Part shown: one piece after another, positions 3,306 through 57,325 of the stretch
Layout: each line of letters begins with the position of its first letter
Position numbering within the stretch: the first letter of the stretch is position 1
Assembly (NCBI RefSeq): GCF_006345805.1
Contig: NW_021833695.1
Coordinates: 1 to 64,000 of the forward strand
Reading direction: 5' to 3'
DNA from: Octopus sinensis
Lineage: Eukaryota
Length of the DNA: 64,000 bases
Notes under the pieces: generated by a model
Database searches by the model: none
Told to the model about the DNA's origin: nothing
Seen by the model: the letters and a program-made list of their open reading frames with translations, nothing else
Made by a program: the position numbers and the translations under genes

Positions 3306-3692
3306 GACAGTTGTACATTCACTGCGGAAGTATCGTGTTCCTGGGGTATGTGGATCTGTTGGTAATTATATGCATATGGTTGTGTTATGCTGATGAAGAG
3401 AAATAGATTCTCTCTGTCATTCCGAAATCAATTGATCCATAGCTGAACCTATTCATGAATCTTTTCGTTTACTTCCTCGCTTTCAGTGCGTGTTTATATG
3501 AGGTAGTTTTGCACCATTTCGCATCTTCTTTTAGCATGTGGCTTAGTCTATCGTAAGACTCTGTTTTTATCCCTTAATATGGTTTTATAAATATAGTTAT
3601 AAAATTATACTTTCTATGAAATTTTTAACTTAATTCGTTATGACATTCTGGCTACTTGATAAAATCAAATATAGAGGTTATCCTTAATTTTA
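3306..3692 (+). mobile_element. Penelope-like pseudo-LTR fragment carrying an HHR
   Basis: Contains the HHR at 3384-3443. The downstream ttcctcgctttcag block is shared with the cassette at 31684-31910. Ends in a TA-rich tract. Confidence 0.6.
3384..3443 (+). ncRNA. Type I hammerhead ribozyme motif, canonical core
   Basis: Stem I GUUAUG/CAUAGC; CUGAUGA 3390-3396; hairpin AGAGAA/UUCUCU plus an unpaired CUGUCAUUCC in the stem II region; GAAA 3424-3427; palindromic stem III A-UCAAUUGA-U; predicted cleavage after AUC (3437). Confidence 0.65.
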
Positions 3693-3720
3693 ATATATAT
3701 ACATACATATACATACATGT

Positions 3721-4052
3721 GAAGGCGCATGGCTCAGTGGTTAGAGCGTCGAGCTTACGATCGTGAGGTTGTGAGCTCGAATCCCGGACCGGGCTGCGTG
3801 TTGTGTTCTCGAGCAAGGCACTTTATTTCACGTTGCTCCAGTTCACTCAGCTGTAGAAATGAGTTGCGACGTCACTGGTGCCAAGCTGTATCGACCTTTG
3901 TCTTTCCCTTGGATAACACTGGTGGCGTGGAGAGGGAGCTGGTATGCATGGGCGACTGCTGTCTTCCATAAACAACCTTGCCCGGACTTGTATCTAGGAA
4001 GGTAACTTTCTAGGTGCAACCCCATGGTCATTCATGACCGAAGGGGGTCTTT
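3721..4052 (+). mobile_element. Family-C tRNA-derived SINE (V-domain-like), near full length
   Basis: Pol III A box TGGCTCAGTGG and B box-like AGCTCGAATCC, then gtgttctcgagcaaggcacttt. A second copy is at 57537. Confidence 0.85.
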
Positions 4053-4224
4053 ATATATATATATATATATAATATATATATATATATATAGTAGTATATA
4101 TATATATATATATATATATATATTATATATATAATAGTACATACATATATACATGTGTGTGTATAAGTATATATATACATACACCCACACATATATATAT
4201 GTATTATATATATATATATATATA

Positions 4225-4460
4225 TTAAGGTATGTAGAAAAATACAACATGGACAGAAACGTATAACTCATAGAAGACGATCCAATAAACATGCCAGGAC
4301 ATTCGAACCCCTCCTCAGTCTTCAGTCAAGAACCGGATCATCGTAGTAATTTCGGCTGATTAATCTTGAGATTAATAATATCTATATATCTATATATATA
4401 TATTATAGTATAATATAGGTGAATGAATTATCCCATGTTTCTCGTCAGCATGGAATGCGT
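4225..4460 (-). mobile_element. Decayed PLE pseudo-LTR fragments between (TA)n tracts
   Basis: The minus strand carries CTGAAGA/CTGAGGA, CCGAAA and CCATG-CTGACGA-GAAA-CATGG, an HHR relic lacking stem II. TA arrays adjoin. Confidence 0.4.
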
Positions 4461-4577
4461 TTAAAAACGAAACCTGGGTAGCAAATTCACGTCAGAAACA
4501 CGGTTGAAGGCGACCTGTCCAAGGGTAGAAACTCCGGGTTCATGTGCAGAGATTTTGTTGTGTTGTATATGAATAAA

Positions 4578-4769
4578 TAAAGAATGGAGTCGAACGAAGA
4601 TGTTAACAAAATTCCTTTAATCTCGACATATGTCGAGGCTCCCTTTCTTTCCTGATGCGAATATTGCATAATGCACCCTTTATTCCTTTGGAATGAAAAC
4701 ATGTTGTCTTCGAAACGTATGTCGAGAGTAAAGGAATTTTGTTAACATCTTCGTTCGACTCCATTCTTT
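4578..4769. repeat. Inverted-repeat (fold-back) cassette of PLE pseudo-LTR type
   Basis: Arms of about 54 bp (4578-4631 and 4717-4769) are near-perfect reverse complements. The spacer has CTGATGC...CGAAACGTA, a decayed HHR. Confidence 0.8.
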
Positions 4770-53499: not shown

Positions 53500-54165
53500 C
53501 TTTCATTTTCATTTATCATTATTATTGTCATTATTACTATCGTTATTATCATTATTATTATTATTATCATTATTATTATATTATTAGTAGTAGTAGTAGT
53601 AGTAGTAGTAGTAGTAGTAGTAGTAGTAGTAGTAGCAGCAGCAGTAGTAGTAATATTGTCATTATTATTAAGCATAACTATTATTATTGTTATCATTATT
53701 ATTATTATTATTATTATCATCATCATTATTATTATTATTAGTAATATTATCATTATTTTTAAGCATTACTATTATTATTGTTATCATCATCATCATCATC
53801 ATTATTATTATTATTATTATTATTATAATTATTATTACTACTACTATTATTATTATTATTATTATTATTAGTAGTAGTAGTAGTAGTAGTAGTAGTTGTA
53901 GTAGTAGTAATAGTAGTAGTAGTAGTAGTAATATTGTCGTTATAAAGTATTACTATATTATTGCTATCATTATTATTATAATTATTATTATTATTATTAT
54001 TATTATCATTATTATTATTATTATTATTATTATTTTATATATTATATTATTATTATTATTACAATAATTATTACCATTATCATCAGTAGCAGTACTATTA
54101 CTAGCAGCAGCAGCAGTAGTAGTAGTAGTAGGTATAGTGGTAGTAGTAGTATAGTTGTTGTTATT
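53500..54165. repeat. (ATT/AGT/ATC)n microsatellite complex
   Basis: Direct reading. Confidence 0.9.
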
Positions 54166-54870
54166 GTAAATAATTGATCAAAATGTTATTTTATGTTTTG
54201 TTTCTTGTTCTTTTTTCGTGTTTTGATTTTTGTCCTTTTCTTTTTTATATCTATTTAAAATATCTTTGTTGTATATATTTTTGTTAGCAACAAATAACAG
54301 TTTGTTTGAGAATTCTTGTTAATTCTTCTGGATATTTTTTTTTTGTTCTTGTACATATAATTTGTTTCGTTTTGTTTTATTTTTATTTTTCTTCTTTCTG
54401 TAAATCCCCTCCCACATCCCCCTTCTCTCTCTCTCTCTCTCTCTCTTTCTTTCTATCTCTACTTCTATCTCTGTTTGTCGTTGTTGTGGTTCTTATTATT
54501 TCTACGCCATTTGTCATAATTTGCGACTTCACAAGAAATTCTGAATAAATGGTAATATTTCAGTGATTAGTTGCAATAAACTGAAGTACAGATGACCGAC
54601 AGAATGAATACGGTAATACCGTGCCGTGCCGTTATTATCACACAATCAACCAACCCAGTCTTCGAGATATTGACGTAAAATAATCTTATTACTAGGCCTC
54701 TGTGTGTGTTATGTGTCAGCCGCCATTTTTACCTCACTCTTAGTCTCTTGTTGCCTTCGTCATCGTGTGACACAATTGCTGTGTTGCTGCCGTTATTTAG
54801 ATCTTACTCATCTCTGATTATACAGACCTATGGTTAAAAGGAATGCAGCTGAATCTGTTATTAAATAGAG

Positions 54871-55605
54871 CAGTGATTCTCAAAATTTCTTTCTTTTATC
54901 TATGAACCCCTTTGATTACTGTTTCACAGTGATGGACCCAACATGCATATTTAATGTTTTATAAAAACTTCTTTCAAAATCCCTATTTTGTGTATCACAT
55001 ACATGCTCCTTCTTTTACTTGTTTCAGTCATTTGACTGCAGCTATGCTGGAGCACCGCCTTTAGTCGGATAAGTCGACCCCAGGTCTTATTCTTTGTAAG
55101 CCTAGTAGTCATTTTATAAGGCCCTATTTTGCCGAACTGCTAAGTTACGGGGACGTAAACACACCAACATCGGTTATCAAGCGATGGAGGAAGGGGACAA
55201 ACACATGCACACAAACTTAAACACCCACACCAAACACACACACACACACACACACACATATACGACGAGCGTCTTTCAGTTTCCGTCTACCAAATCCACT
55301 CACAAGGCTTTGGTCAGCCCGTGACTATACTAGAAGACACATGCCCAAGGTGCCACGCATTAGGACTGAACCCGGAACCATATGGTTGGTAAGCAAGCTA
55401 CTTACCACACAGCCACTCCTGCACCTAGGTAAAGAAACCTATTTGTATCTTGCAATACATACCAATATATACATTTAAAGCAATTTTCTTTCCGGAGCCC
55501 TTAAAATACTATCGTGCATCCCTAGTTTACTATTTTGTTGCATAGACCCACAAAATTCTTATATGGATGCATAGGGGCCATATGGACCCCGGTTGAGAAC
55601 TATTT
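54871..55605. mobile_element. hAT-Charlie-type MITE with a nested family-A SINE
   Basis: Termini CAGTGATTCTCAA and GGACCCCGGTTGAGAACTATT. An adjacent partial copy lies at ~55665-55820. Confidence 0.7.
55011..55425 (-). mobile_element. Family-A SINE, full length
   Basis: Reverse-complement consensus match. Confidence 0.9.
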
Positions 55606-55833
55606 GCTAAAGGATTAAAGAATTGCAACATCATCATCATCATCATCATCATCACATCATCATCATTTTCCTATCTATGGATTCCTTTGATTCCTATTTT
55701 ACTCTGATAGACCCAACATAGCCATTCAATGTTTAGAAAAAAATAGTTTTATTGGTACTTCTTTCAAAATTCCTATTTCGTTCTTCAAACATTAACTTAT
55801 GTGAATGGGTATTACAGAATATATATATATAAA

Positions 55834-56080
55834 GGCGGCGAGCTGGCAGAACCGTTAGGACGCCGGGCGAAATGCGTAGCCGTATTTCGTGTGCCGTTAC
55901 GTTCTCAGTTCAAATTCCGCCGAGGTCGACTTTGCCTTTCATCCTTTCGGGGTCGATAAATTAAGTACCAGTTAAGCACTGGGGTCGATGTAATCGTAAT
56001 CCTTTAATCCGTGTTTCCACCATTTATCTGTCCTTGTTTGTCAACCGTCATGTTTAGCCACTTGTGGGTAATAAAGAAAC
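55834..56080 (+). mobile_element. Family-B SINE, full length
   Basis: ggcggcgagctggcagaaccgttagg... tail cttgtgggtaataaagaaac. Confidence 0.9.
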
Positions 56081-57056
56081 ATATATATATATATATATAT
56101 ATGCGTGTGCGTGATTATCTGTATGCGAGCGTCTATATATAAATATATGCATGTGTATGGCGTAGTGTGTGCCTGCGTGGTTGTGAGTGTGTGTGTGTGT
56201 GTGTGTGTGTGTGCGTGCGTGCGTATGTGTGTATGTGAAATGACTCTTGATGAGAACTTCCGACTATGAGTTCCCAAATGTTCCGTCTACTATGCTACCA
56301 GGTTCATTGCACTCCATCGAAACCTGTATACATAAACGATGAAGAAAAATGTTCAATACAATGTACAACCAACTAGAACTAGCGAAGGTGGTGTCCTAGA
56401 ATGGCCGTAGTCCAGTGAATGAAACTGCTGGAAAGGCAAGGAAAGAGCAATAACAAGACGACCAAACCTTTGAGAGGGAGACTGAAATGACAGAAACCGG
56501 TACCAGCTTGTTAGGGAGATATTATCTGTAATTAGAGTGCCTAGAATTGTCTCGCGCTAACTCACGGAGATTGTGAGTGAAATCTGGCATACTGCCGAGA
56601 CACAGGTTTTAAGATTTCAGGCCCAGTGTTTAAGGATTGCTGTAGGCTTAATTTTTTCAGGTTCAGATTCCAAGGTACGAAGCACAATTTAGGGTTGAGG
56701 TACAACCTTCAAGGTTTGAAACAGAGTGCTCAAAAACTGATGCACATTCCCTAAGAGTTGAGTCACAACTTCAAGGGTTTCGGTACACACTTCAAGGGTT
56801 TCGGTATAGTCTTTAAGGATAAACGTGATTATATGAGCTTTATTTCTTTGGAAAATAAGAAGAGAAGAGGAAGAGATACAAAATCGACCGAGCATAAGGG
56901 ACGAAACCGTGATGGCAGGTCGATATACCACGGTGCATTTATGTTGTGTATATGGATTTTATCAACGGAAAAAACAAATCGGAAAGAACAAAAACAGGCA
57001 CAGCTGTGTCGTTAAGAAGCTCGATGGCACAACCCCGCCCTCAAAAAAAAAAAAAA

Positions 57057-57325
57057 AAGACAGAGATAAGCGAGGGGGCAACAAACAAGATGTATCAGTT
57101 TTGATGGTCAAGAAGAATGAAGAAGTCCCTGAGGTTTTGAGGTTACGTTCTTGAACAGAAGCGCTGTCTCTTTTTCTCCGCTTATTTCCTCTCTCCATCT
57201 GTTTTCTTTCTTCATTCCTATCTGTTAAAGAGCGCAGGCTCAAAACATCAACGACGTCTCCGTTCTTCCTGAGAATCAAACTAATACACATTATTTGTTG
57301 TTCCCTCATCTGTCTCTGTCACTTT
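57057..57325. mobile_element. Old fold-back PLE cassette with decayed HHRs in both arms
   Basis: Right arm CTGTTAA-A-GAGC-GCAG-GCTC-AAAA-CA-TC; left arm (reverse complement) CTGTTCA-A-GAAC-GTAA-CCTC-AAAA-CC-TC. The downstream sequences are homologous. Confidence 0.6.

Follow-up and report, generated by a model that had tools for sequence, protein, structure and literature searches.

The closest described relatives of the elements treated here are Penelope-like elements (PLEs) of the Hydra and Neptune clades and the retrozymes of metazoans that lack long terminal repeats (non-LTR retrozymes). Hydra-clade PLEs are shorter than 3 kb, carry the motifs RWK and DKT and a CxCX5C linker, target (TA)n, and bear a hammerhead ribozyme whose stem II has an additional base at each end and whose stem III is a palindrome of odd length (PMC8557442). 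Neptune-clade PLEs have a C-terminal GIY-YIG domain, a CX2-5CxxC linker and a microsatellite target; in the Neptune and minimal PLE hammerheads A9 is followed by an additional base and the palindromic stem III is tiny, and they occur mostly as solo copies and opposite-strand pairs (PMC4209133; PMC8557442). Metazoan retrozymes are tandem units of 150–450 bp (PMC7229834). The role of the hammerhead in PLE transposition is treated as an open question (PMC8557442; PMC11167929). Here we describe hammerhead-bearing elements in a 64,000-nucleotide stretch of the Octopus sinensis genome (NCBI RefSeq assembly GCF_006345805.1, contig NW_021833695.1, positions 1–64,000; hereafter the window). Based on family membership, linkage of two families (A and C) to PLE open reading frames (ORFs), TA at both junctions of families A and B, truncation, inverted pairs and density, the sites are very probably for the most part short, 5'-truncated PLE ends with a minimal hammerhead near the 3' end, together with likely retrozyme-like monomers; families A, B and C would have entered TA microsatellites by target-primed reverse transcription, and the non-canonical cores that many copies carry are most likely weak.

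Hammerhead-bearing PLE ends in TA repeats are real and largely known. Hydra-1_Obim of Octopus bimaculoides has been published with both its hammerhead and its (TA)n target (supplement of PMC8557442), and because the phenomenon, including this Octopus element, is already in print (PMC8557442; PMC4209133), the novelty of a largely unannotated ribozyme-bearing population, as the original prediction had it, is reduced to its scale and its variant cores. In the literature on octopus hammerheads, as far as the accessible texts go, only the work of PMC8557442 is relevant, and the available text of a repeat annotation of O. vulgaris never mentions ribozymes (PMC13282606). What seems to be new is the genome-scale abundance, an A6U core fixed throughout family A, and a U4C core in young copies of family B and in family E.

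Hammerhead motifs are present at all nine main coordinates of the window where type I hammerheads had been proposed, and genome searches place all nine sites in multi-copy families: A (15370 and 24991), B (41966 and 45203), C (5057 and 5311), D (31678), D2 (3384) and E (18134). First-look candidate counts in the searches with these families were 3030, 1289, 1438, 1346, 167 and 58. A strict canonical type I descriptor finds no hammerhead in the window, and loosely relaxed versions find three or four, compared with 0.7–0.8 in shuffled sequence. The relaxed descriptor used below, which was tuned on the main sites of the window, allows stem II an additional base at either end, provides for a palindromic stem III and accepts four core types (CUGANGA, CCGANGA, CUGUNGA and UUGANAA). 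It passes five of the nine sites (3390+, 5316+, 15401-, 18140+ and 45233-) and none in each of 50 shuffles; only two of the five have a canonical core. The four failing sites are damaged family copies, namely 5057- with a stem II deletion, 24991- with a short stem I, 31678+ with a decayed core and stem III, and 41966- with a broken stem III palindrome. Of the window copies, most are decayed or have non-canonical cores.

Relics proposed for the window fared unevenly. Those at 4652 and 57222 belong, in decayed form, to hammerhead families, the latter to family A. At 25332 the 5' core on the plus strand is the inversion junction of family G, and the real relic lies on the minus strand. The relic at 4430 is unconfirmed, and those at 8341, 21742 and 24607 are plausible by eye, with no homologues among the fetched loci; the one at 21742..21800 (-) is probably an E-like hammerhead with an insertion.

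The sampled density is far above chance. We drew 119 random 10-kb regions (1.19 Mb) of the 2.72-Gb genome, the first 79 from lower-bound chromosome lengths, leaving aside unplaced contigs, chromosomes 23, 27 and 30 and one overlapping draw. The relaxed descriptor matches 44 times in this sample, compared with a mean of 1.4 in five shuffles. Twenty of the 44 have a canonical core, 10 are U4C, 10 A6U and 4 U3-A8; among control cores, A6C appears once and A6G and U4A/G do not appear. A three-stem junction with G12-A13-A14, A15.1-U16.1 and an H17 other than G is found at all 44, as at the five window sites that pass. The motifs fall by eye into about 17 families. Extrapolation gives 37 motifs per Mb, which for the whole genome comes to about 97,000 (Poisson range 73,000–135,000); paired copies are counted twice, so the number of insertion events is lower. 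With its five descriptor matches, the window is not significantly denser than this average (P=0.09). Searches of the same sample with seven window profiles gave 69 matches from six of them (A 30, B 17, C 11, E 9, D 1, D2 1 and G 0). Family A alone thus has about 69,000 copies genome-wide (46,000–98,000), including copies too short to hold the hammerhead. Hammerhead-bearing remnants likely number about 100,000 per genome, and the very large population that had been foreseen is borne out at this scale. For comparison, minimal hammerheads number about 9,000 in Xenopus and 4,000 in coelacanth (PMC4209133); other published counts are >6,000 for a coral, about 5,000 for a mussel and, as retrozymes, up to 120,000 for axolotl (PMC7229834).

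That the motifs are chance matches in AT-rich, repeat-rich DNA is, on these figures, extremely improbable. Such an explanation would account for the failure of the strict descriptor, for the absence of hammerheads among the 150 of 370 Rfam matches listed for the window (nearly all of them microsatellite-driven microRNA matches), and for the unremarkable folding z-scores of eight of the nine window motifs. It is refuted by the excess over shuffles, by a core conserved over thousands of family copies and by linkage to PLE ORFs. A genome search with the Rfam model RF00163 gave seven matches among 74 scored, none inside the window, and is therefore unusable as a copy count.

Family C is the 3' end of a Hydra-clade PLE, a placement based on motifs and on comparison by eye. 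A protein search returned 16,873 candidates, of which 139 were scored and yielded 140 matches. At one fetched locus (L270), a single 708-amino-acid ORF with reverse transcriptase (RT) and C-terminal GIY-YIG domains is followed by a family C pseudo-LTR (pLTR) with a hammerhead and then by a TA array, the whole element being shorter than 3 kb. Its protein contains RWK, DKT in place of DKG, the CxCX5C linker, and CxxC plus CxH near the C-terminus, as in the definition of the clade (PMC8557442). Domains were read from motifs, as Pfam gave no match on five PLE proteins. In the family C hammerhead, the Hydra-type extra base is present at each end of stem II, and the palindromic stem III is of odd length; the extra-base architecture is common also to families D, D2, E, F and G. 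Family C inserts at (TA)n. By eye, the protein closely resembles that of Hydra-1_Obim, the two families being related but distinct. A canonical core is present in 24 of 29 selected copies, and a U4C subfamily exists, to which the hammerhead of the intact-ORF copy belongs; in contrast, all Hydra hammerheads given in File S2 of PMC8557442 have the canonical CUGA turn.

In the window, an inverted family C pLTR (4949..5098, -) ends at a TA array (4927-4952) and contains the hammerhead with the stem II deletion (5057-5098, -). It is followed by a frameshifted N-terminal piece of a Hydra-clade ORF (5170..5301, +), 74% identical to residues 1–46 of the L270 ORF, and by a hammerhead with a canonical core and a long stem II (5311..5371, +), whose copy ends at an internal site within a TA array (5409-5424). 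A further family C 3' end lacks the hammerhead and lies between TA arrays (22185..22258, +).

Family A is, from its motifs and with no tree, the 3' end of a Neptune-type PLE. One locus (L077) has a GIY-YIG end upstream of an A-type hammerhead, and a search with this end gave 2,278 candidates, from which four new loci were fetched. Two of these (L334 and L336) contain an RT, a CX4CxxC linker and a GIY-YIG relic, followed by a C-rich untranslated region (UTR), an A6U hammerhead and TA; the other two are interrupted before the hammerhead. The Neptune order (RT, then a CX2-5CxxC linker and a GIY-YIG domain with CCHH, upstream of the pLTR) is thus seen in the frameshifted relics of L334, L336 and L077. 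Family A also has the extra base after A9, the tiny palindromic stem III, and the preponderance of solo copies and opposite-strand pairs of the Neptune and minimal PLE hammerheads as described; it differs from these in its fixed A6U core and in the number of copies of one family (PMC4209133; PMC8557442).

The window copy at 15284..15442 (-) is flanked by TA arrays on both sides and holds an A6U hammerhead (15370-15405, -). An older copy (24914..25086, -) ends at a TA array, its A6U hammerhead (24991-25026, -) having a stem I reduced to 3 bp, and an old inverted pair (57048..57332, both strands) includes the decayed hammerhead near 57222 (+). A further Neptune-type family, with 598 first-look candidates, is represented by a GIY-YIG relic and 3' UTR at 23360..23935 (+) that ends at a TA run. 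Both PLE ORF relics that had been proposed for the window are therefore confirmed, at 5170-5301 and 23360-23640. At 23760-23805 (+), and in four fetched loci (L328-L331), the 3' UTR of this family seems by eye to carry a decayed U3-A8-type hammerhead, a motif absent from the original prediction.

Family B has stems II and III in common with family A, as well as a downstream motif, and its stem I differs from that of A by a compensatory swap of G-C to C-G; A and B are taken to be sister families. A window copy at 41866..42080 (-) has TA arrays on both sides and a hammerhead at about 41966-42000 (-) with a U4C core and the broken stem III palindrome. The other (45093..45323, -) is young, being 98–99% identical to genomic copies; it ends at a TA array and has a U4C hammerhead at 45203-45237 (-).

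With 149 (TA)5 runs and 24% simple repeat in the window, adjacency to TA must be judged against a null. A (TA)5 run lies within 250 nt downstream of six of the nine main sites, compared with 27% under the null for the window (hand-calculated P of about 0.02); those at 3384, 18134 and 31678 have none. In the random sample such a run follows 30 of 44 motifs, compared with 18% of random positions (P=6e-13). Mapped 3' ends lie at TA in 28 of 32 copies of family A, 39 of 41 of B and 15 of 24 of C (null 6.6%), and 5' junctions lie at TA in 29 of 57 copies of A and 32 of 48 of B (null 7.9%, with shared TA arrays masked). In tandem copies of family C, the pLTR end runs into the ORF leader with no TA array between. 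Family C has, in addition, a second end that is internal; there the sequence of 14 of 35 copies gives way to TA, reminiscent of the pair of RT start sites in an anole PLE (PMC11167929).

It is improbable that the TA arrays are tails made by the elements. The higher adjacency at 3' ends (about 90%) than at 5' ends (51–67%) is what such tails would give, and some 3' expansion is possible on this account. However, TA is enriched at 5' junctions also, the tandem C copies lack an intervening array, and (TA)n is given as an insertion preference of Hydra PLEs (PMC8557442). TA on both sides, together with the tandem C copies, speaks for arrays that existed before insertion. A single TA array often holds more than one hammerhead family, nested head-to-tail (L021, L041, L042, L064 and L134), B following A or C, and A following D, which suggests repeated use of the same target.

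Insertion would then proceed as follows. The GIY-YIG endonuclease would nick (TA)n, and reverse transcription primed at this target would copy from the 3' region of the RNA, usually stopping after 150–250 nt and leaving a stub. Owing to its position about 100 nt from the end, the hammerhead would be present on almost all such stubs, which would explain the density. With a palindromic stem III, cleavage would need two copies. The A6U core of family A and the U4C core of young B, E and one C subfamily would most likely make weak ribozymes that are not needed for insertion; in the anole PLE, hammerhead mutants had no effect on insertion in vitro (PMC11167929).

Several observations weigh against this account. 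No intact Neptune ORF was found for family A, only broken ORFs in the five fetched loci, and an ORF link is shown for none of families B, D, D2, E, F and G. A stretch of about 0.85–1.05 kb, in which no ORF was seen, is common to three long B copies (L279:629-1687, L280 and L281); it is mostly CA/TACA-like microsatellite, and as this is carried inside the element, B also spreads microsatellite-like DNA. Mapped 3' ends are rarely at TA in families E (4/45), D (5/28) and G (3/21), so the targeting of TA is not general and the landing-site proposal holds for A, B and C, at both junctions in A and B. Ends of short interspersed elements (SINEs) also adjoin TA on their 3' side (3/7, 2/4 and 1/1, in small samples). 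Finally, variation at N7 and H17 of family A while other core positions stay fixed fits a selected, working fold better than a dispensable relic.

The PLE origin proposed for these short elements is supported, and the sites comprise several classes instead of one. In family E, which resembles a tandem monomer of retrozyme type, the element's own 3' end precedes 11 of 32 copies, and one locus (L108) has a 365-nt repeat unit. The family resembles metazoan non-LTR retrozymes (PMC7229834; bioRxiv 10.64898/2026.07.22.740005, as described there) in an apparently circularly permuted monomer of about 365 nt, an extended stem I and no visible ORF; it differs in its U4C core (C4 in 29 of 31 copies) and in occurring mostly as monomers and inverted pairs, not long arrays. 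No same-strand hammerhead dimers at monomer spacing were found among the E loci checked. The window monomer (18088..18351, +) does not adjoin TA, and its hammerhead (18134-18180, +) has a U4C core and an extended stem I. Family D has same-strand copies 510–628 nt apart, and in the window forms a tail-out inverted pair (31469..31903, both strands) with a decayed hammerhead at 31679-31736 (+).

These features of E and D, and the tandem units of described retrozymes (PMC7229834), would suit a view in which all sites are non-autonomous retrozymes spreading through small circular RNAs. As an account of the whole set it is unlikely: A and C continue upstream into PLE ORFs, A and B have the staggered 5' ends typical of truncation, and the retrozyme reading fits only E and perhaps D. 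Hydra-like ORF fragments lie near E or D2 at L282, L108 and L156; a link between them was considered and rejected, as inverted or duplicated junctions or unrelated DNA intervene. At about 4780-5330 of L282, an inverted E unit, apparently with an 11-bp flanking target duplication, lies by eye inside another PLE-like 3' region.

Hammerhead core positions are given here in the customary numbering. The C3-U4-G5-A6 turn, otherwise invariant, is retained in families C, D, D2, F and G and altered in A, selected young B and E. In family A, U6 is present in 17 of 18 random and all 45 selected copies (62/63), the single exception being truncated inside the core; N7 can be any of the four bases, and H17 is A, U or C, never G. 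The window A copy was aligned with contigs from four runs that carry the labels of four organisms and stem from four studies (2,686, 7,508, 5,005 and 33 contigs). All four runs show variation at N7 (15397) and H17 (15374), and for core positions 3–6, 8 and 9 no change of ≥5% is listed. In family B, C4 is present in 31 of 36 selected and 4 of 13 random copies, older B-like copies being canonical; CpG decay may have turned C4 back to T.

Natural U4C, A6C and U3-A8 variants have been described (PMC3088659; PMC4209133), the first two with reduced activity (PMC3088659), and U4C and U3-A8 occur here at the family level. A hammerhead with A6U was not found among the variants described in the literature consulted, although a study of dimeric PLE hammerhead variants (Lunse et al. 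2017) may list it, and a literature search for such a core turned up only a paper on twister; here it dominates the most abundant family instead of being rare. We consider the A6U core probably weak or vestigial, by analogy with the low activity of natural A6C (PMC3088659) and of CUGA-turn mutants (PMC9901934), and in line with the lack of effect of hammerhead mutants on anole PLE insertion. In the predicted monomer folds of both A and B, pairing occurs between the variant core strand and stem III; in A, U6 takes part in it and the fold is a rod.

It is also conceivable, if only tentatively so, that the family of about 69,000 copies spread with a working, selected A6U variant, cleaving as a dimer or with the element's protein and kept across subfamilies and related organisms. 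Near-complete retention of U6 while N7 is free and H17 never G, the same pattern in the four runs, and the compensatory swap in stem I between B and A would all fit, and the anole PLE hammerhead needs protein for cleavage (PMC11167929). However, the conservation of U6 could reflect a protein-binding structure or a few master lineages.

Family A (U6), young B (C4) and the older canonical B-like copies make a natural series. Should A6U prove inactive, a PLE lineage has reached tens of thousands of copies without cleavage, and in vivo the ribozyme can be dispensed with. An active A6U would extend the known catalytic core and place this genome among the densest hammerhead stores known, with a predominance of cores that escape standard descriptors. 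In both cases, descriptors limited to canonical cores would overlook about half of the motifs, 24 of the 44 sampled being non-canonical.

The D2 hammerhead (3384..3443, +) has a canonical core, a 10-nt palindromic stem III and a weakened stem II; its element (about 3321-3591, +) has no TA array at its end. Family F forms a tail-out inverted pair (4410..4791, both strands), the plus copy of which (about 4630-4791) has a decayed core, canonical in other family copies, and ends at a TA array. Family G is present as an inverted pair at 25156..25444 (both strands). Its hammerhead, seen in L169-L187, combines a canonical core with a very short stem I, and its core halves are separated by a stem II of about 90 nt, a geometry beyond the usual descriptor limits. 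Five self-inverted or tail-out pairs were recognized in total (4559-4791, 5020/5408, 24014-24189, 25205/25395 and 31469-31877), an arrangement described for PLEs (PMC8557442). The pair at 24014-24189 is self-inverted and belongs to another multi-copy family, with 35 local matches; its AT-rich ends resemble those of family D, and the window copy has no hammerhead. Another multi-copy element end, at 4226-4385 (-), with 16 local BLAST matches, adjoins TA arrays and has a hammerhead-like 5' core half without the canonical GAAA half.

At least three SINE-like families, presumably akin to octopus SINEs, are present in many copies, often beside TA (1977-2904, 7084-7769, 9483-10447, 28714-30504, 55011-56079 and others). 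At 47620-48192 (+), a 191-amino-acid open frame resembles a fragment of a non-LTR retrotransposon RT.

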